The translations under genes and the position numbers were made by a program. Below, piece by piece: positions 10,340 through 18,768 of a DNA stretch of 64,000 nt. Every line of letters starts with the position of its first letter. The stretch's first letter is position 1. The notes below the pieces were generated by a model. It was not told the origin of the DNA. It did not search any database and saw only the letters and a program-made list of their open reading frames with translations. Origin of the DNA: an uncultured bacterium (GTDB taxonomy: Bacteria; Abyssobacteria; SURF-5); assembly GCA_964607485.1 (NCBI GenBank), contig CAZSKP010000015.1, forward strand, positions 46,198 through 110,197, written 5' to 3'.

Positions 10340-10963
10340 TTATTTCTGTTCGTCCAGCTTGACGCGGGTGCTGATGAACACGTGGTCGTCCTCTATCGAG
10401 TAGGCGAGACCGGTCTGCTGACAGATGCGCGTTATGATGGTCCTGAGCGGCAGCGGGTTGTCTGTCCTGATGCTGACTTCCGAATCCAGCAGGCCCTTGG
10501 ATTCGGCGAGCACCGTCTCATCCACTATGATGTTCACATCGGTCAAGAATGTAAGCGACTTGGCGACGTTGCGGACGTCCTCCTCCGAGAAATCCACCTG
10601 AACCAGTTGATTCAGCTTCTGGTAAAACTTGTCCTGGGCCTCGCCCTTGTCCTTTATCTCTTCGATGACTTTCTTGCAGCACTCTATCGATTCATCCACC
10701 ATGCGATCGATGCCGTGTGGACGCTCGTCGGGCAGGTTGGGATAATCTTTCCAGATGTTCTCGTACCCGCGGAGCGCCTCTCTGTACTTCCGCAGCGCGA
10801 GCGCGTAGTCCTTTCCCTCGAGCGCTTCCGCAGCCTGTTCCTCTATGGGTTTCACCTCGTGCAGAAACACGAACAGCGCGGATTTTTGAATCTCGAACGC
10901 CCCGACCTCGACCGAGGTCATGCACGACAACAGGACGATGAGAAGCAACGTCGCTCGCTTCAT
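10340..10963 (-). CDS. Secreted hypothetical protein with helical N-part and STN/secretin-N-like C-terminal domain
   Basis: Signal peptide; C-terminal VQVDFSEEDVRNVAKSL...VNIIVD...VSI...PLRTIITRIC..TGLAYSIEDDHVFIST pattern; ATGA overlap with upstream PHP gene. Confidence 0.6.
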   Translation of the reverse strand: MKRATLLLIVLLSCMTSVEVGAFEIQKSALFVFLHEVKPIEEQAAEALEGKDYALALRKYREALRGYENIWKDYPNLPDERPHGIDRMVDESIECCKKVIEEIKDKGEAQDKFYQKLNQLVQVDFSEEDVRNVAKSLTFLTDVNIIVDETVLAESKGLLDSEVSIRTDNPLPLRTIITRICQQTGLAYSIEDDHVFISTRVKLDEQK

Positions 10964-11667
10964 CGGCTTTCACCCGACAGCAAATTGCGGAAAGTTCCCG
11001 AAATGTTGTCGTAGATGTGCTCCAACCCATGTTTGCCGAACTCTATCAGCTTCAGCGGATTGGCGGCGATCTCGAGGCGGCCGGCCTTGACGGCGTCGAT
11101 TATGGCCTCCGTGTTTTTTTCGGCCTCGACGAGCGAGTAGGCCGAGCCGAATTTCTCCAGGTGATGACAATCGGACGTGCACACCAGCGGGAGCCCATGC
11201 TTCGCGGCCGTCCGGAGGGCGAACATGTTGAAATTTATCCGGCTGTGATAGAACCATGAAAATTCTAACGCATCAAACACATCGATGTTTCTTCCCACAA
11301 GCCACATGAGAGAAGAAAAGTCGGGGAAATATGGATGAGGAGCCACGACCATATTCTCAGGAGTTCGGAGCCTCCTCAGGTCGTCAAGGCTGCGTGCCTC
11401 GAGGATTTCATCGCGCGCGTTCACAACAAGCACGTGCTTTCCCCGGATATTCGCCTCGACGCCCGGAATGAGAACAATTCCCCGCTCACGCGCATAGTCC
11501 CGCAGATAGCTGCTGAAAGAAACGGCGTTGTGATTCGTGATGCTTATCGCGTCGAATCCCAGGTAGTACGCCTTATCTATCAACTCACAGCTTGTGTGCA
11601 GGACTGGCTCTTCCGGGTCGTCTGCAGTGTGTGTATGAAGGTCGACTTTCAGAAATTTCTTGGGCAT
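10960..11667 (-). CDS. PHP-domain metal-dependent phosphoesterase (start approximate)
   Basis: KVDLHTHT, AISITNHN, IPGVE, VAPHP, TSDCH motifs. Confidence 0.9.
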   Translation of the reverse strand: MPKKFLKVDLHTHTADDPEEPVLHTSCELIDKAYYLGFDAISITNHNAVSFSSYLRDYARERGIVLIPGVEANIRGKHVLVVNARDEILEARSLDDLRRLRTPENMVVAPHPYFPDFSSLMWLVGRNIDVFDALEFSWFYHSRINFNMFALRTAAKHGLPLVCTSDCHHLEKFGSAYSLVEAEKNTEAIIDAVKAGRLEIAANPLKLIEFGKHGLEHIYDNISGTFRNLLSGESR

Positions 11668-11766
11668 CTCAACTTCGATTTCTCTCATCAGGCGAAGCTT
11701 CTCCCACAATTTTAGTTGTGCAAAACAGATTTGTCAACGATGCCAGTGTTACATCAGTTATTCTGG

Positions 11767-11884: not shown

Positions 11885-14089
11885 GTGTTCGATATTGGCC
11901 AGTGGATTGAAGACCAATATCTCGTCCTCGAACGACACCGCGGCAGGCGGTGGACCGTCTATGTGGTGCAGGACCGCATTTCGGAGAATGTGTTCGTCAT
12001 CAAGAGACCCTCGGAAGTTCTGCTTCCCGACCCCCTCGCGGCGGACCATTTCGTCAACGAAGCGAGAATCTGGATAAACATCGGCGAATGCGATGAGGTC
12101 GTCAACGCGTACCTTATCAAGGAGTTTGAGGGAATACCCCACCTGTTCCTTGAGTACACTGACGGCCCCAGTCTCGAAGACATCCTAAGCTCGCGCCCCG
12201 GGAAACCGCTCCCCACCGACCAGGCCGTCGCCCTCATGAGGCAGCTCATTAACGGCATGAAGTTTCTTCATTCGGCGAGTCTGACGCCTGGAAATCGGGG
12301 TGTCGTACACGGCAGCCTGACCCCCCACGCCATCTTGACCAAATCGGGGAACATCAAGATAACCGACGTCGGCCTGGCCCACGCGTTGCGCCAGTCTTCC
12401 AGGATGCTTAATGCCGGCCACTTTCTCTGGGACATTTCATACATGGCGCCCGAGCAGTTACAGGACCTCCGCGAGGCCGACAAACTGACCGATATTTACT
12501 CGTTCGGTGCAATAATGTACGAAGTCGCGACGGGTACGTCGCCGATGATGGGGAAAAAACCCGAGGACCCCTTGAGCGACATCGTCCGGTTCGAGCCGGC
12601 TCACCCCCGGACGCGCAATCGCTCGTGCCCTCGGTGGCTGGAGGAAACGATTCTGAAATGCATGGCGCGGGAGCGGGCAAACCGCTTCCAGAGCTTCGAG
12701 CTGATTGACGCGTTCGTGAGCGAAGTGCTCAGGGGAGAGGAGGAAGCCTCGCCGGCTCGTGACGCGAAGGAGGAAACGGATTCCGCCCATACCTCGCGGG
12801 TGGCGCGTGTGCGCGGAGTGGCGAAGAAGGAATCGCGCCGGCTCGACCACTATTACGTCGGCGTCGAACACCTGATGCTCGGCCTCATTGCCGAAGAGGA
12901 AAGCGTCGTTGTGAGTTGTTTCGGCGACGCGGTAGACGCGGAACGGCTCCGTTCGGAAATTCTCTCCCATTTGCCGAAGGGGGAGGGGCCGTGGTATTGG
13001 GACGATATAAGAAAGACCCCGCGGTACAAACGCGTAATGAAGCTGGCGCGCAAGATAAAACGGGAACACAGCGACGACCGCATGCTCCCACAACACATCC
13101 TCCTCGCGATACTGAAGGAGGGACGGAACGTGCCGGTCCGCGTGCTCAAGGGATTGAACGTCGATGTCAAAGCCGCGGCCCGAAACCTGCGGCGGGAGAT
13201 GAAGCGCAGAAGGCCGGCAATCTTCGTTGCCGATTCCGAACCTGGCGCGATTAGTTTCACGATCAAGGTGGCCTGCACGACCGACATCCCCTGTTCCATT
13301 CCCTTCGTCGGCCGGCGCTCGGAACTGGAAAGAGCTCGCGGGCTGCTCCTCGACGACAGAAGAAGCGTCATGATAGTGGGCGAACCGGGGGTCGGAAAGA
13401 CGGCCTTCGTGCACGAACTTGAGTGTCTTGTTTCGGAAGCGTCGGGCGACGCAGGGCGCGAGAGCGGCGGCCTGGTCAAACTTCACGTCGCGTCCCTCAT
13501 CGCGAGCACCGAGGGAGGGGAACAGATTATCTCTAATCTCACGGACGCCATCAACTCGGTCGTCGGTTCCAAATCCATCCTGGTGATAGAGGACCTTCCG
13601 GTGGTTGTCGGCCTCGGCGGAAAACTGCCGCCGGGGGCTGTCGGCAGGATGCTCGAAGAGTACATCGTGTCCAAAGGGCTGGTCGTCGTGGCAACGACCA
13701 CGCGCGCAGGGTACGTGTCGTGCGAAGCGGAGCACGAGAACCTGGTCCCGTTTCTCGAAGTGATAAACCTGCGCGAGCCTTCGAGTGAAGAGACGTTCGA
13801 GATGCTGGTGGCGGCGAAGGAGACTCTTGAGAACGAGCACTCCGTCAGGATCGTCGATGAGGCGCTGACCGCCTCGGTCGACCTTTCGCGAGAGATCCAG
13901 GGGAGAGCGCTTCCTGCAAGGGCGTTCGAGCTGCTCGACCGCGCATGCGTCGGCGCGAGGTTGAGCGCAAGCACGCCTGAGCAGGCTCGCGAGCAGATCG
14001 TCATCGATGCGGAACGAGTGGAATATGCCCTGGCCGAAGCTCGGCAGCTCGAGCGGGCTCGGTCCGACCAAGAGCGTGGAGTCGTATAG
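11885..14089 (+). CDS. Fusion of Hanks-type (pseudo)kinase, Clp N-terminal domain and ClpA/B NBD1-like AAA+ domain
   Basis: Kinase fold (VIK, FVNEAR, LEY, HGSLTPHA, KITDVGL, YMAPEQ, DIYSFG); ClpN repeats (HYYVGVEHLMLGL, TPRYKRVMKLA...QHILLAILKE); FVGR, GEPGVGKT, EPS..E, RALPARAFELLDRAC; start moved to GTG 11885. Confidence 0.88.
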   Translation: MFDIGQWIEDQYLVLERHRGRRWTVYVVQDRISENVFVIKRPSEVLLPDPLAADHFVNEARIWINIGECDEVVNAYLIKEFEGIPHLFLEYTDGPSLEDILSSRPGKPLPTDQAVALMRQLINGMKFLHSASLTPGNRGVVHGSLTPHAILTKSGNIKITDVGLAHALRQSSRMLNAGHFLWDISYMAPEQLQDLREADKLTDIYSFGAIMYEVATGTSPMMGKKPEDPLSDIVRFEPAHPRTRNRSCPRWLEETILKCMARERANRFQSFELIDAFVSEVLRGEEEASPARDAKEETDSAHTSRVARVRGVAKKESRRLDHYYVGVEHLMLGLIAEEESVVVSCFGDAVDAERLRSEILSHLPKGEGPWYWDDIRKTPRYKRVMKLARKIKREHSDDRMLPQHILLAILKEGRNVPVRVLKGLNVDVKAAARNLRREMKRRRPAIFVADSEPGAISFTIKVACTTDIPCSIPFVGRRSELERARGLLLDDRRSVMIVGEPGVGKTAFVHELECLVSEASGDAGRESGGLVKLHVASLIASTEGGEQIISNLTDAINSVVGSKSILVIEDLPVVVGLGGKLPPGAVGRMLEEYIVSKGLVVVATTTRAGYVSCEAEHENLVPFLEVINLREPSSEETFEMLVAAKETLENEHSVRIVDEALTASVDLSREIQGRALPARAFELLDRACVGARLSASTPEQAREQIVIDAERVEYALAEARQLERARSDQERGVV

Positions 14090-14440
14090 TTGAAGTCCGA
14101 CAAGTCCCCCGCCGGGAAAACCGATAAAATCATCGTCGAGGTCATGAACGGGCCTGAGGACGGGCGCGTTGTCGTGTGCGACAAGATTCCTGTATCGATA
14201 GGCAGAGGAACCGACAACCGAGTATGCATTCCCTACGACCATCTCGTTTCGCGGCATCACGCCAAGATCGCAGGATCAGAGGGTAAGTTTCTCCTGTGCG
14301 ATTTGAACAGCACCAACGGCACTTTCGTGGGGAGCGAACGGGTTCGGGAAGACACGCCCATTGAGCCCAACAAGCTGTTTCGCGTGGGCGCGACCCTGCT
14401 GATGCTCAAACTCCGCTCAGCCGACGCATCGCCGAAATAG
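14090..14440 (+). CDS. Stand-alone FHA domain protein
   Basis: SIGR, VSRHHA, DLNSTNGTFV: canonical pThr-binding residues present. Confidence 0.93.
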   Translation: MKSDKSPAGKTDKIIVEVMNGPEDGRVVVCDKIPVSIGRGTDNRVCIPYDHLVSRHHAKIAGSEGKFLLCDLNSTNGTFVGSERVREDTPIEPNKLFRVGATLLMLKLRSADASPK

Positions 14441-14458
14441 ACGAGGAGCGTGACGTCC

Positions 14459-16360
14459 ATGGCACATGAGAAGGAGCCTGCGGCCGCCCGAAATCGTACG
14501 AAACACCGCCGCAAGCTTCCCTGCGCCAACCACCCGAGAAATCCCGCCGCAGCCCGCTGCGAGGTCTGTGGAAATCCGATATGCAGGGAGTGCGTGCAGT
14601 TCTACGACGGCGCGCACATCTGCGGTGAGCTGTGCTGGAACAAGAAGCGGTTGGACGAATCGGCAAAAGCCTCCAAAGAGGACAGGCTCCGGCGGCGACA
14701 AAAGGAAAAGAAAGCAAACCGTGCCGTGACGGTGGGGCTGTTGGCGGCGCTGGTCGTGGTTCTGGGGGCGGTCGGCGCTTTCGTGTACACTGTCGTGTCC
14801 GACCACTCGGGAGACAAAGCCTGGGAATTCGAGAATCCGGGAGGGTCCTTCGATTACGCGGTCCGACCGAACCTGAACTCCGTCTTCCTTCTGTCGGCGG
14901 ACGGAAACGTAGAGACAATCGACGCCTTGACCGGCGTGCTAAAATGGCGCGTCAAATTGCCCGAGAGGTCCGGCCACTCGGAACTGATGATAATCGATGA
15001 AGACCACTGTCTCGTCTATTTCGGGAACACGGTCTTGCTCTGTAAATCGGGCCGAGCGGCGCCGGCGTGGGAATTCAGTGCACCACAGCCTTTTCTGTGC
15101 GCCGAGCCGGTGCATTTGGATGACCGTCTCTACGCGGTAAGCTCCCCGGTCGGCTCCTTCTTCCAGGTGTTTCCCGAGCTGGAAGAGATGAGGTCTGCGC
15201 TCTTGATGTCTCCCGAGCTCGAATCGCTGAGGTCCGTGGTCCGGGCGCCGAGGCCGCAGTCAGATTCGGCCGGCGCAATCCCGCCCCCACGGGAACAACC
15301 GGAGACGGCCGGCGAGCAAGCCGAAGTGGAGCGGCTCTCCACGGTCAGCGCCGTGGACATGGCCTCCGGCAAAGGACTGTGGGACACCGAACTGGTAGGT
15401 CTTAGGGTCGAGGGCCTGCTGGCGGATGAAAGTCGGGTCTACGCGGTCGGCTATCAGTGGAGAGAATACGGGAGGTACGGCGCGGCCCCGGAACCGGAAG
15501 AGCCCAAACAGGAGGACTCCGCCGGCGACCAAGAAGCCTCACACGTCAGCTCCACCCAGCTTTGGGCGCTGAACGCGACAACCGGCGAGCCGGAGTGGAA
15601 GCTGGAAGGGATGGGCAATTTTCTGGTTTCTCCCATGAAGAGCGACGAGGGCATCGTCTTCTCGACAATGGAGAATATCTACTTGATCTCGCCCGAGGGA
15701 AAGATAAAATGGAAATATTCCCTCGGCGAGAGAGGTGTTTACGCGTTTCAGCCGAGCTATGACAAGCTCTTTGTCTCAACGGGCGACGGATTCCTTGTCT
15801 GCATCGACCTCGCCTCCGGACGCGAAAAGTGGACGACCGAGGTCGGCATGGGAGCCGACAGGATAGTCGTCAGTTCTCCGCTCGCATACGTCTCGTCACT
15901 GGTCAAGGTGGAGAAGGAAGCCCGGAGAGTAATAATGACGAAACGCTGGAAGGGGTCGGAGGACCTGTTGAAAAAAGCGCTGAAGCGAGACGAAGTGAGC
16001 TATGAAAGAGTCATCCACGGCATCGACGTCGAGAGCGGTGAGACGCGCTGGTCGATTCCGAAGATCGAGGGCGAGTTCGAATATGGGCGGGGATTTCTGT
16101 ACGCGTTGCGCTATTTCGAGAGGCTGCAACTCCTCGATGCCTCGGTCGACTCCAGCCAGATAGCCAAGACGGTGTCGAATCTGGGCGCGTACGACTGCCT
16201 GACCGGCGAGAAAGTCTGGGAGACCGGTATTGACGGCTACGCATCGGACCTGCGTCTGACCCCATTCGTCGGCATCGTGAAGTCACGCTCGCAAGTGCTT
16301 ACCGTCGGCGCGGCGGCCGAACAGCGTCCCGGACGCCTGATCGGAATTTCTCTCGAGTGA
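14459..16360 (+). CDS. B-box zinc finger + single TM + PQQ-like beta-propeller protein
   Basis: CANHP...CEVCGNPICREC...ICGELC; hydrophobic helix VTVGLLAALVVVLGAVGAFVY; repeated D..TG...W motifs (DALTGVLKW, DMASGKGLW, NATTGEPEW, DLASGREKW, DVESGETRW, DCLTGEKVW). Confidence 0.85.
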   Translation: MAHEKEPAAARNRTKHRRKLPCANHPRNPAAARCEVCGNPICRECVQFYDGAHICGELCWNKKRLDESAKASKEDRLRRRQKEKKANRAVTVGLLAALVVVLGAVGAFVYTVVSDHSGDKAWEFENPGGSFDYAVRPNLNSVFLLSADGNVETIDALTGVLKWRVKLPERSGHSELMIIDEDHCLVYFGNTVLLCKSGRAAPAWEFSAPQPFLCAEPVHLDDRLYAVSSPVGSFFQVFPELEEMRSALLMSPELESLRSVVRAPRPQSDSAGAIPPPREQPETAGEQAEVERLSTVSAVDMASGKGLWDTELVGLRVEGLLADESRVYAVGYQWREYGRYGAAPEPEEPKQEDSAGDQEASHVSSTQLWALNATTGEPEWKLEGMGNFLVSPMKSDEGIVFSTMENIYLISPEGKIKWKYSLGERGVYAFQPSYDKLFVSTGDGFLVCIDLASGREKWTTEVGMGADRIVVSSPLAYVSSLVKVEKEARRVIMTKRWKGSEDLLKKALKRDEVSYERVIHGIDVESGETRWSIPKIEGEFEYGRGFLYALRYFERLQLLDASVDSSQIAKTVSNLGAYDCLTGEKVWETGIDGYASDLRLTPFVGIVKSRSQVLTVGAAAEQRPGRLIGISLE

Positions 16361-16386: not shown

Positions 16387-17511
16387 ATGACCGGGAACAG
16401 GAGAAAAGAGGCAGGTCCCTCCCGCGGCGAGGCCGTCGCCAACTACATCACCGACCTTCTTAAGAACTCTATCGAGATAGTCACCGACTATTCCTGCAAG
16501 TATCATCCCGACCGCGCCGCCACCGCCGTCTGCGAATGGTGCAGCGCCGACCTTTGCTCCGATTGCGCGCACGTTCGAGGCCATCGGCTCGTGTGCCGCA
16601 ATTGCATGGGCTCACTCGACAGGACGTTTGCGGGAACGGGCGCCGCGTCGGTTCTGACGCGGCTGCTCACGCACCCAATTGTGGTCGCATTGGTGCTGAC
16701 GACATTGCTCGGAGGCCTGCTCGTCGGCCTCGGCAGGATTCATCGCAAGGGACTGCTGGGGGAAGTTCCGGCGACCGCCAGCGGGGTCGAAAAACAGTTT
16801 CGTCTGAAGCTCGTCCTGTATGCGCAGAAAGCCGACCGCATCGAAACCCACGCCGATGAACTCCAGAAAGTCGGCCGCACCGATGAGGCGGCGGCGGACT
16901 ATGACCGCGCCAGGTCCATCCACGAGATGCTGGCCCGCGAGGCCGCCGGCAGATGGGAGGAGCAGGCTTTCACTCTGGCGAGAGCGAGAATCCTGGAAAA
17001 AACGGGCGAACGCGCCTATGCCCAAGGGCTGTACGAAAACGTCGCCAACCTGCCCGGCGCAGACAAAACCTATCCCGTCATCGCGCAGTTTCATCTGGCC
17101 AAACTCCAGGAAAAGACGAACCCGGAAGAGGCGGTGGCGACGTACACGCGACTCCTGCGCGACGTCAACTTCGTTCCCGACAATTTCTCCCGCGCGGTCA
17201 ACATGATGGCGCATTCGCAGGGCGCTTACAACTACGACAGCCGGATACAATTTCACACGCGCACCGACTTCGATTTCGACACGGTCAAAGTGGAGACGCT
17301 GCTGGAGATGGGTCGGCTGTTGGCTGCTATGGGACGTACCGACGAGGCTGCGTTCAGACTGGGGCAGGCGGCCAACGAGGGATTTGGCACGAAGCTGGGC
17401 GAGCAGGCCACGGCTGAACTCAGGAAGCTCCACACCGTCGATGTGCCCGAGGAACCTCCCGAAGAAGAGGCCGAGAAAGAAGAAGAACTGACCATAACTC
17501 ACTTCGACTGA
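16387..17511 (+). CDS. B-box zinc finger + TM + TPR-like protein
   Basis: CKYHP...CEWCSADLCSDC...VCRNC; TM IVVALVLTTLLGGLLVGL; TPR-like helices; acidic C-terminal tail. Confidence 0.82.
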   Translation: MTGNRRKEAGPSRGEAVANYITDLLKNSIEIVTDYSCKYHPDRAATAVCEWCSADLCSDCAHVRGHRLVCRNCMGSLDRTFAGTGAASVLTRLLTHPIVVALVLTTLLGGLLVGLGRIHRKGLLGEVPATASGVEKQFRLKLVLYAQKADRIETHADELQKVGRTDEAAADYDRARSIHEMLAREAAGRWEEQAFTLARARILEKTGERAYAQGLYENVANLPGADKTYPVIAQFHLAKLQEKTNPEEAVATYTRLLRDVNFVPDNFSRAVNMMAHSQGAYNYDSRIQFHTRTDFDFDTVKVETLLEMGRLLAAMGRTDEAAFRLGQAANEGFGTKLGEQATAELRKLHTVDVPEEPPEEEAEKEEELTITHFD

Positions 17512-17547: not shown

Positions 17548-18768
17548 ATGCTTTTTCCGGTCAAAATTGAGACAGAGATAGAAAAGTTTCCGATCTTCAC
17601 CTATCTCATAATAGTCGCAAACGCGGTCGTATTCCTGTCCATGCGGTTCCTTCCCGCGTCGGCGCTGGAAATGGCGTATTACGATTACGGATTCATCCCC
17701 GACCACATCGACGCCGTCTCGATGTTCACGTCGCTGTTTGTCCACGCGGGCTGGCTGCACATCGTTGGCAACATGTATTTTCTGTGGCTGTTTGGGCGGG
17801 CGGTGGAACAGCGATTGAACAGAGTGCTGTACGTGATCCTGTACTTCAGCAGCGGAGCGGCAGGCGGCCTCCTGCATGCGGGACTGACGCCCGCGTACAT
17901 GGCCGACATTCCCTGTATCGGCGCCTCGGGCGCAATCTCGGGTGTGCTCGGCACCTACATGATTCTGTATCCGTGGGAGGAAGTGTACTGCATCTACTTT
18001 TCTTTCACGATGAGATATGCCACTTCCATAACTCTGTCCAGCGTCTGGGTGCTGGGCTCGTGGTTCGTGCTGCAGTTTGCGGACGCGCTCTGGTTCACGC
18101 CGCAGACGGCGGAAGCTACGGTCGCATTCTGGGCTCACATCGGCGGGTTCGTGTTTGGCGGGCTGGTTGCGGCGGTCCTGAAGTACTCCGCCGCCTTTGC
18201 CGGTATGCTTCGCAGGCGTTCGGTCGTAATCGCACTCGAGGAATATTCCGACCTCCTCCACAAAGGCAGGACCGACGAGGCGGAGGAGAGATTGAAGACG
18301 GCCCTGAAGGCCGCACCATCGAACGCGCTCGTTCTCGGCGAGCTGGGAAGAATCGAGTTGCGCCGCGACAACCGGAGGGGTGCGCGAAAGCTGCTCCGCC
18401 GCTCCCTGAAGAAGGCTCTCAAGCAGAAGGACGACGCAAAAGCCGTGGCCGCATACTTTTCGTTGGTCGCGGCCCGGGAAGATCCTCCCAGCAACTCGCA
18501 GCGTCTCGTCATCGGCCGAAGGTTTGCGCGTTTGAAGAAGTACGGCCATGCCCTCGGAATCATGGGCGGCGCGTTCAAGCCCGACGCCGAGATGCACGGC
18601 CTGGATATGCTGCTGTACGAGATTGCGGAAATCTTCGCCGGCCCGCTGAAGGATTGGGGCCGTGCCGAGGCATCCTACAGGCTGCTGCGAGAGCTGTTTC
18701 CCCATTCTCCCCGCAGTCTGGACGCGGAATACCAGCTTCGCAAGTTGCAGGCGAAAGGAAGGGCCTGA
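17548..18768 (+). CDS. Rhomboid intramembrane serine protease with C-terminal TPR-like domain
   Basis: FVHAGWLHIVGNM, GASGA (catalytic Ser), WAHIGG (catalytic His), then a helical repeat domain. Confidence 0.93.
   Translation: MLFPVKIETEIEKFPIFTYLIIVANAVVFLSMRFLPASALEMAYYDYGFIPDHIDAVSMFTSLFVHAGWLHIVGNMYFLWLFGRAVEQRLNRVLYVILYFSSGAAGGLLHAGLTPAYMADIPCIGASGAISGVLGTYMILYPWEEVYCIYFSFTMRYATSITLSSVWVLGSWFVLQFADALWFTPQTAEATVAFWAHIGGFVFGGLVAAVLKYSAAFAGMLRRRSVVIALEEYSDLLHKGRTDEAEERLKTALKAAPSNALVLGELGRIELRRDNRRGARKLLRRSLKKALKQKDDAKAVAAYFSLVAAREDPPSNSQRLVIGRRFARLKKYGHALGIMGGAFKPDAEMHGLDMLLYEIAEIFAGPLKDWGRAEASYRLLRELFPHSPRSLDAEYQLRKLQAKGRA

Follow-up and report, generated by a model that had tools for sequence, protein, structure and literature searches.

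We analysed a window of 64,000 nucleotides (nt) from an uncultured bacterium of the Abyssobacteria lineage SURF-5 (GenBank assembly GCA_964607485.1, contig CAZSKP010000015.1, positions 46,198 to 110,197, forward strand), in which one open reading frame (ORF) encodes a kinase-like domain, a Clp N-domain (ClpN) and an AAA+ domain in a single chain. An earlier note, made from the letters alone, had described the product as a double pseudo-enzyme in which both the kinase and the AAA+ module have lost catalytic residues. Family-wide losses and purifying selection bear that description out as the probable one. The ClpN between the kinase and the first nucleotide-binding domain (NBD1), which the earlier note overlooked, is the core of the protein, and it is the predicted docking site of the small FHA protein encoded immediately downstream. 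These genes and domains are as follows (dN/dS, ratio of nonsynonymous to synonymous substitution rates).

11885..14089, + strand: pseudokinase-ClpN-pseudo-NBD1 fusion, 734 amino acids (aa) from GTG (Pfam Pkinase, Clp_N and AAA_lid_9)
11897..12724, + strand: pseudokinase domain, residues 5-280 (motif counts and dN/dS)
12788..13210, + strand: ClpN double repeat, residues 302-442 (alignment to structures of the ClpC N-terminal domain)
13292..13969, + strand: Clp NBD1-type AAA+ domain with lid, residues 470-695 (end-to-end NBD1 alignment)
14090..14440, + strand: stand-alone FHA protein, 116 aa, beginning at the first base after the fusion stop (Pfam)

Residue numbers of the fusion are counted from the GTG at 11885, which is the likely start: GGAGG lies 8 nt upstream and the starts of relatives coincide with it, while the open frame runs from 11777. 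The ORF has no internal stop or frameshift, and hydropathy gives no transmembrane segment. A single-chain model from a 10-row alignment had a mean predicted local distance difference test score (pLDDT) of 72 and a predicted template-modelling score of 0.55, and its top PDB matches were ClpC, Hsp104, ClpA and ClpB.

Each motif reading in the earlier note was located where it had been claimed, as were the full-length frame and the absence of a second NBD (NBD2). In the kinase these are the glycine-loop HRGRRW (11936-11953), beta3 VIK (11996-12004), FVNEARIW (12050-12073), HGSLTPHA (12308-12331), DVG (12365-12373) and WDISYMAPE (12428-12454); in the AAA+ domain, Walker A GEPGVGKT (13379-13402), Walker B ILVIED (13577-13594) and NLVPFL (13739-13756). 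The listed losses stand, but two entries describe this copy only, namely the retained alphaC Glu (Glu in 1 of 28 rows) and the lost catalytic-loop Asn (kept in 23 of 30).

Catalytic losses and selection across the family

The kinase fold itself is not in doubt (Pfam PF00069, E 1e-25; 33-37% identity to ten intact kinases). According to passages of a recent survey (PMC12599244), a pseudokinase is defined by the loss of at least one of the beta3 Lys, HRD-Asp and DFG-Asp. Counting here and below the family alignment rows that have a residue at the position, the HRD-Asp is missing in 29 of 30 relatives (N 21, G 6, S 1, V 1, D 1). Also lost are the HRD-Arg, the catalytic Lys, the glycine loop, the GT and the alphaC Glu (K in 16 of 28 rows, R in 7, and E only in the window copy), all set against retention of HRD-Asp, alphaC-Glu, DFG-Phe and GT in 12/12 of the closest intact kinases. 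What the family keeps is the beta3 Lys (28/28) and the DFG-Asp (28/30), and it has gained invariant residues of its own, Trp23 of the glycine loop (28/28) and others in the C-lobe.

The AAA+ domain can be aligned over its whole length with the NBD1 of ClpB, ClpA and ClpC, which puts the motif assignments in register. Among these motifs the PFxGR linker, the sensor-1 Thr, and the Lys (28/29) and Thr (27/29) of Walker A are kept. The catalytic Glu of Walker B occurs in 0/29 rows (D 23, N 3, G 3), the motif reading mostly E-D with the first acid present in 29/29. The first Arg finger is found in 0/29 and the second in 9/29, and the pore loop is variable. Measured against class I Clp/Hsp100 proteins (ClpA, ClpB, ClpC), the fusion has the ClpN double repeat and NBD1, and has no NBD2, ClpP-docking loop, Walker B Glu, Arg fingers or pore loop; the M-domain is absent too. 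A search of NCBIfam at E 1e-40 gave no Clp family match. By the established chemistry of kinases and AAA+ proteins, both domains thus appear to have kept residues that bind nucleotide and lost those that turn it over, which is in keeping with the nucleotide-binding scaffold proposed in the earlier note: the ATP-pocket residues are retained family-wide under purifying selection. The catalytic losses are neither accidental nor private to this copy and go back to the ancestor of the family.

Full-length orthologues are present in all 9 other genomes of the taxonomic family, which together span 8 genera, at 50-57% identity; no orthologue was found in the 31 genomes examined beyond it, including one of the same class (G010). 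A protein search in which the best 7998 candidates were scored returned 31 family members (the window copy counted, five of them partial), four of them labelled Ca. Abyssobacteria/Abyssubacteria or Ca. Hydrogenedentota, before falling to ClpC at about 28-30%. Among the best 150 matches listed from a profile search of 1.84 billion representatives, the top ones were family members and fragments only. Near-full-length relatives measure 711-770 aa, and all end after the NBD1 lid.

The gene is maintained by purifying selection. In two congeneric pairs, analysed by the Nei-Gojobori method (NG86) at dS values of 0.4-2.7, which is near saturation, overall dN/dS was 0.19 and 0.13, against 0.11-0.20 for the operon neighbours. 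By domain the two pairs gave 0.135 and 0.115 for the kinase, 0.091 and 0.071 for ClpN, and 0.30 and 0.23 for the large subdomain of the NBD; the NBD1 of the host's own ClpC gave 0.036 and 0.003. ClpN is the most constrained domain of the fusion, with 60 of 141 columns (43%) at least 90% conserved, as compared with 74 of 276 (27%) in the kinase and 16 of 159 (10%) in the NBD. Nearly all of those 16 columns lie in the nucleotide pocket or the core, and mean NBD1 identity across the family is 42% in the fusion versus 95% in host ClpC. Judged by its sequence, the fusion NBD1 no longer behaves as a ring-forming motor.

The ClpN pocket and its predicted FHA partner

Alignment to structures of the ClpC N-terminal domain places two pseudo-symmetric pockets in ClpN. 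Passages of PMC12583610 assign E32 and R122 of Bacillus subtilis ClpC to one phosphoarginine site (pArg2) and T7, R9 and E106 to the other (pArg1), with MecA binding both; repeat symmetry and our model together suggest that T81, R83 and T31 belong with E32. The fusion keeps this second pocket in E328, T378, P379, R380 and R419, which correspond to E32, T81, P82, R83 and R122 of ClpC and are conserved in 31/31, 30/31, 31/31, 31/31 and 30/30 family members respectively, except that the T31 equivalent is Val in 31/31. The other pocket is gone, T105 and E106 being P402 and Q403 here and P/S and Q/H in 30/30, so that the two-pocket arrangement of a ClpC-type N-domain is reduced to the E32 site. In a search of clustered sequence features, the clusters nearest to window positions 12770-13219 were stand-alone proteins of 142-157 aa, two of them with phage members; beyond these, the feature-cluster atlas yielded FHA and Clp_N clusters of a generic kind.

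In all 10 genomes the FHA gene lies directly next to the fusion. Its product retains the phosphothreonine-reading motifs G-R, S-x-x-H and N-G (G38-R39, S54-R55-x-H57 and N76), as do the nine orthologues. It also has a GPEDG loop (14150-14164) that contains Asp24. The Asp-Gly of this beta1-beta2 loop is present in 33/33 aligned rows and in 0/36 control FHA rows from six genomes.

We modelled ClpN residues 300-442 together with FHA residues 10-113, using paired 33-row alignments and with the expected site written down beforehand. Three runs scored 0.72, 0.73 and 0.72, with at least 74% of contacts in agreement and a partner pLDDT of 86-87, and the best of three controls scored 0.01. The mark used for this score separates 157 solved pairs, 116 of which reach it, from 215 mismatched ones, of which 2 do, a calibration that is only roughly valid for alignments of our own. 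The contacts of lowest error join FHA Asp24 to T378, R380, P379 and Y381, with G326, Y324 and 414-416 around them and R419 in the interface; this is the pocket that had been noted before modelling. The interface residues listed for the model do not include R39, S54, R55 and N76 of the FHA, and the phosphothreonine site is accordingly predicted to stay free. The model thus supports FHA-ClpN binding, and predicts that it takes place without phosphorylation. Docking on the N-domain, as expected of a Clp adaptor, is in this case a prediction (0.72 against 0.01) accompanied by co-occurrence. A conserved Thr on the fusion as the target of the FHA was considered and set aside, the linker Thr being kept in only 13/30, and among the names of 25 solved FHA relatives there is no Clp partner.

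The co-occurrence was counted in 160 loci that scans had found with this type of ClpN, grouped into 61 clusters at 70% N-domain identity and sorted by a signature set on ClpN alone. A same-strand FHA gene is present in 22 of 25 signature clusters (20 of 23 without two orthologues of the family), within 400 nt in 18 of the 22 and behind a kinase gene in the other 4. A hand count from the listing gave 0 of 18 for canonical ClpC and ClpB clusters, and of the remaining 18 clusters 3 have an FHA, all of them near-miss members. The variant class carries Y324, P417 and a Trp linker, which are absent from ClpC. Its hosts are M-domain-less Clp ATPases, with record titles naming Chthonomonadales, Chloroflexi, Anaerolineae, Acidobacteriaceae and Ca. 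Methanoperedens, and proteins that join ClpN to TCAD9 (PF19974, APH-kinase-like; Pfam was run on 3 of them).

These loci vary in composition. Small FHA genes form a two-gene unit with a variant ClpN-TCAD9 gene of about 640 aa at L187, L205, L233, L237, L241, L242, L249 and L253 (partial at L195, L226, L227 and L243), and such units lie among housekeeping genes, for example murA, leuB and cystathionine gamma-synthase. Related Anaerolineae and Chloroflexia loci, L114, L123, L126, L135, L155 and L174 among them, conserve the order divergent kinase, M-domain-less Clp ATPase, kinase-TPR protein of about 1350 aa and FHA, and the FHAs of this L114 type carry G-P-x-D-G. A locus titled Ca. Methanoperedens, an archaeon (L127:3262-12603), holds a kinase-TPR gene, a variant Clp ATPase extended by 220 aa at its N-terminus, an FHA, a TPR protein and a second kinase, and L098:4070-11298 holds a variant Clp ATPase, an FHA, a long TPR protein and a desampylase-like (JAB) ORF after an extracytoplasmic function sigma factor. 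Two FHAs beside intact variant Clp ATPases (L100:4748-5086 and L101:8178-8591) have lost the phosphothreonine-site Ser, Arg and Asn and kept GPEDG. Seven sister clusters (L165, L189, L228, L239, L245, L250 and L255) read HYYLGVEH, having lost the TPR motif, and have no FHA neighbour.

The host's own ClpC presents the opposite pocket. Its pocket 1 is intact in 10/10 genomes of the family and its pocket 2 has been lost through T81N, R83Q and R122H, whereas T/S81 and R/K83 are kept in 89 other ClpC proteins. We considered co-evolution of fusion and ClpC by partition of the pockets, but the idea is weakened by G010, whose ClpC has also lost pocket 2 (the changes over the family and G010 together being T81N, R83Q and R122H/Q) and in which neither fusion nor FHA was found. 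The mcsA-mcsB-clpC operon lies at G000:C8:133942-138007 (L003), G000 being the window's own genome, and at loci L047-L056; ClpP was also found in the own genome. ClpS and MecA were rejected as ligands of the fusion pocket, with ClpS in 0/10 genomes and MecA in 0/1.

Operon, kinases and intact relatives

Downstream of the FHA gene the operon continues with three further genes.

14450..16360, + strand: B-box zinc finger, single transmembrane segment (93-111) and PQQ-type beta-propeller, third gene of the operon (Pfam, hydropathy)
16387..17511, + strand: B-box, single transmembrane segment (98-116) and TPR protein (weak Pfam hits, hydropathy)
17548..18768, + strand: rhomboid intramembrane protease with C-terminal TPR (Pfam)

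In the nine relatives the fusion is followed by FHA (9/9), the B-box/propeller gene (9/9), the B-box/TPR gene (7/9) and rhomboid (7/9). Thr33 of the B-box-TPR protein is invariant (8/8) and lies just before the B-box, N-terminal of the transmembrane segment; it is a candidate phosphosite for the FHA. Divergent from the operon, a PHP-domain gene and a 207-aa gene of unknown type occupy 10340-11709 on the minus strand, a position shared in 7/9 relatives.

The closest intact kin of the pseudokinase include a kinase-ClpN paralogue in its own genome and kinase-propeller or kinase-TPR proteins, the latter reminiscent of the operon's own propeller and TPR genes. The paralogue (G000:C20:63702-65039, L002; also L044-L046) pairs an intact-looking kinase with a degenerate ClpN. 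Its neighbours in G000 are a cyclase-like-kinase gene on one side and, on the other, a cyclase-like gene that contains an FHA, domain names here being read from sequence. It was rejected as an obligate partner kinase, since only 4/10 genomes have a full-length match. The earlier note had expected the FHA to need phosphorylation by another kinase. The own genome is consistent with this, having 26 kinase-like domains of which about 20 have HRD and DFG; docking of the FHA itself, however, is predicted without phosphate. Seven HRD/DFG kinase ORFs form a tandem array at G000:C2:79820-96229, and motif-deviant kinase domains lie at C9:113710, C21:41931, C28:39518 and C11:117726 of the same genome. 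PADLOC returned only generic kinase matches.

Intact motors with this kind of N-domain exist elsewhere. Among 25 full Clp relatives the RRF Arg fingers are kept in 25/25, both Walker A motifs in 24/25, the NBD1 Walker B pattern in 24/25 and an IGF-like loop in 20/25, so that they look like working, ClpP-docking motors; they often stand beside kinase-TPR genes. None passes the ClpA, ClpB or TssH cut-off, and 38 scanned neighbour ORFs (of 91 listed) gave 0 matches to type VI secretion system (T6SS) families. A ClpA-like origin, which a resemblance had brought up, was dropped: the 39 PDB matches include no ClpA N-domain, and the closest full Clp proteins stay below every NCBIfam cut-off. In three proteins (P0161, P0207 and P0241) a kinase is joined to a whole two-NBD Clp ATPase. 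Signature columns favour the M-domain-less clade by 10 to 3, among sequences that were selected by the family profile. Intact motors with an FHA neighbour were found outside the family, and the search of the family genomes yielded none of the variant class.

Readings of the module and comparison with known systems

We consider it fairly probable that the fusion is a motor-less scaffold on which the FHA docks through Asp24 in the ClpN pocket, reads phosphothreonine written by other kinases, and has its cargo held and not unfolded. Asp24 would act as an anion mimic in the T378-P379-R380 pocket, in the manner of the adaptors and the phosphoarginine that bind ClpC, and the FHA would bring threonine-phosphorylated proteins to the fusion, the phosphate presumably supplied by other kinases. 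With NBD2, the ClpP loop, the pore loop and the Arg fingers gone, bound phosphoproteins would be held or positioned. The two dead domains probably bind ATP or ADP, serving as structural switches or as surfaces for docking. The module would descend from a system of kinase, FHA adaptor and Clp unfoldase that is still intact elsewhere. The least certain step is that cargo or signal would be handed to the B-box membrane proteins and rhomboid. Tentatively, and with rather less assurance than we give the scaffold itself, we extend this to a phosphothreonine degradation pathway in bacteria and some archaea, in which a Hanks kinase would mark proteins, an FHA with the Asp-Gly loop would read the mark and a dedicated M-domain-less Clp would unfold them for ClpP, a prokaryotic counterpart to the phosphodegron adaptors of eukaryotes; the same plug would be reused on TCAD9, and here, with kinase and motor dead, would have become a scaffold coupled to rhomboid.

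Several observations weigh against the scaffold or its proposed history. McsB is present in 10/10 genomes, mcsB lying beside clpC, so that phosphoarginine is a candidate ligand of the pocket. The complex score comes from our own alignments with a rough calibration, and since Clp N-domain/adaptor complexes have already been solved, model memory may favour the pocket. The loci were picked by patterns of this very ClpN and are phylogenetically related, so that the counts make them look more independent than they are; an FHA is missing from 3 of the 25 clusters with the signature (L099 is short, while L139/L181 and the L124 cluster have room for one), control FHA L272 has TEDG nearby, and the anchoring of about 3 rows among the 36 controls is poor. 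One relative, P0020, has Asp at the HRD position. Trees of the Clp part conflict: the fusion, on a long branch, falls next to P0220 in one and inside the M-domain-less clade in the other, from which 23 of 64 rows were left out, and sisterhood with host ClpC is not rejected (approximately unbiased test, p 0.37). What links the fusion to the B-box proteins and rhomboid is gene order.

Of the alternatives, an anti-adaptor sink fares best, though we think it unlikely. The FHA would work with host ClpC through the intact T7/R9/T105/E106 pocket, and the fusion would sequester the FHA or its cargo, thereby gating phosphothreonine degradation by ClpCP. The pocket state of host ClpC, the presence of ClpP, the pseudo-symmetry of the pockets and the lack of any intact variant-class motor found in the family all fit. 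Against it, none of the 18 canonical ClpC/ClpB clusters has an FHA neighbour, ClpC has neither Y324, P417 nor the Trp linker, and pocket 2 has been lost in G010 as well.

It is improbable that the pocket instead reads phosphoarginine as ClpC2 does, binding McsB-made phosphoarginine proteins for buffering or sensing with the FHA as a bystander. The near-invariant pocket (30-31 of 30-31 rows) and mcsB speak for this, as does ClpC2, which binds phosphoarginine with one of two sites (PMC13345244). Yet the Val at the T31 position removes a pocket hydroxyl, the pocket and Asp-Gly FHAs are found together in different phyla, and in the model Asp24 of the FHA occupies it. Phosphoarginine could compete with the FHA, by analogy with ClpC2's own acidic helix.

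There is little likelihood that the fusion is not fully dead, its kinase being weak or atypical, its ATPase working slowly by means of the swapped Walker B acids, or both. Asn is found in place of the HRD-Asp in JAK JH2 and HER3. The family retains the beta3 Lys, DFG-Asp, catalytic-loop Asn, Walker A Lys and first Walker B acid at the counts given above, and pseudokinases with alternative chemistry exist, as passages of PMC12599244 describe. However, the HRD position tolerates N, G, S and V, the alphaC position is K or R, the catalytic Lys is variable and the window copy is without the Asn; D, N and G all occur where Walker B should have its Glu, no Arg finger is conserved, and no compensating invariant acid was seen.

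The earlier note's suggestion of a dominant-negative subunit or adaptor for ClpC or ClpB, by which the dead NBD1 would insert in their rings as a poison or adapt substrates, is very improbable and finds no support here. The fusion does retain the fold of NBD1, its lid and Walker A, and an AAA+ subunit that has no Arg finger would silence the subunit next to it. A ring partner, though, should keep a surface that matches the highly conserved ClpC NBD1, and the fusion has no NBD2 or M-domain; its weak NBD1 conservation, confined to pocket and core, argues against co-assembly with ClpC. The adaptor of the module is most likely the FHA and not the fusion. A decaying gene duplicate can be dismissed: NBD1 is relaxed about ten times or more relative to ClpC, but the gene is full length in 10/10 genomes, has dN/dS values like those of its neighbours and carries new invariant residues.

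In the openly available article texts searched, we found no report of a pseudokinase-Clp fusion or of an FHA Clp adaptor, the nearest being MviN-FhaA and the PpkA-Fha-ClpV set of the T6SS; the comparisons below rest on passages of the papers cited. The motor-less scaffold most resembles MviN-FhaA of Mycobacterium tuberculosis, in which a pseudokinase scaffold recruits an FHA protein and another kinase supplies the phosphate (PMC12599244), with recruitment here predicted from genes and a model. FhaA, however, binds phosphothreonine on the MviN tail, whereas our FHA is predicted to sit on ClpN by its acidic loop with the phosphothreonine site free, and the MviN pseudokinase cannot bind ATP and has no Clp domains, whereas the fusion keeps the beta3 Lys and DFG-Asp. 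None of the pseudokinase families named in the same survey (ActPs1-3, GLW, CP1, DYD, DLHK), compared by their descriptions, is described with HG[N/G]L, an intact beta3 Lys and a ClpN fusion. CP1 members fused to a COG3899 ATPase share the cytosolic pseudokinase-ATPase plan, but here the ATPase is a degenerate Clp NBD1 with a ClpN.

MecA, ClpS and phosphoarginine on the ClpC N-domain (PMC12583610, PMC10149685, PMC5515868) use the same type of pocket, a small protein reading a mark and docking; here the reader would be an FHA domain and the mark phosphothreonine, with one pocket and no motor, and no FHA adaptor appears in the passages of those papers. ClpC2 of Actinomycetota (PMC13345244) is likewise motor-less, with a ClpC-like N-domain and one of two phosphoarginine pockets, which acidic residues can fill. 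It is nevertheless a DNA-binding repressor, while our ClpN lies between a pseudokinase and a pseudo-NBD1, and the pocket kept in the fusion appears to be the other one. In the T6SS, PpkA, Fha and ClpV act together as Ser/Thr kinase, FHA and Clp ATPase, Fha1 being needed for ClpV1 foci, but those passages describe no direct FHA-ClpN docking (PMC3953482), and the relatives of the fusion score too low for the TssH cut-off, with no T6SS family matched by the 38 neighbour ORFs scanned. Plant SMXL proteins (PMC9133912) also reuse the Clp architecture for signalling without the ClpP loop; they are eukaryotic, keep both NBDs and the M domain, and have no kinase or FHA. In passages on the ternary conflict systems of Kaur et al. 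(PMC7159879), ClpN is mentioned only on vWA proteins; related ClpNs are fused to TCAD9 elsewhere. The core of such systems, MoxR-vWA or GTPase next to the variable component, was not seen in the window operon.

Pseudokinase scaffolds and Clp N-domains with adaptors are known kinds; the new element would be the predicted docking of an FHA on the ClpN of a conserved double pseudo-enzyme. Clp targeting is known to proceed through ClpS, MecA-type adaptors or phosphoarginine. If the docking is true, an FHA serving as adaptor of a Clp N-domain would give Ser/Thr-kinase signalling a direct connection to remodelling or proteolysis by Clp, and the idea is open to test using two domains (104 and 143 residues) and mutants of single positions. 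As for the fusion, in which two enzymes would have lost catalysis in one chain while a protein-binding pocket stays under the strongest selection, it illustrates a route from proteolytic module to scaffold.

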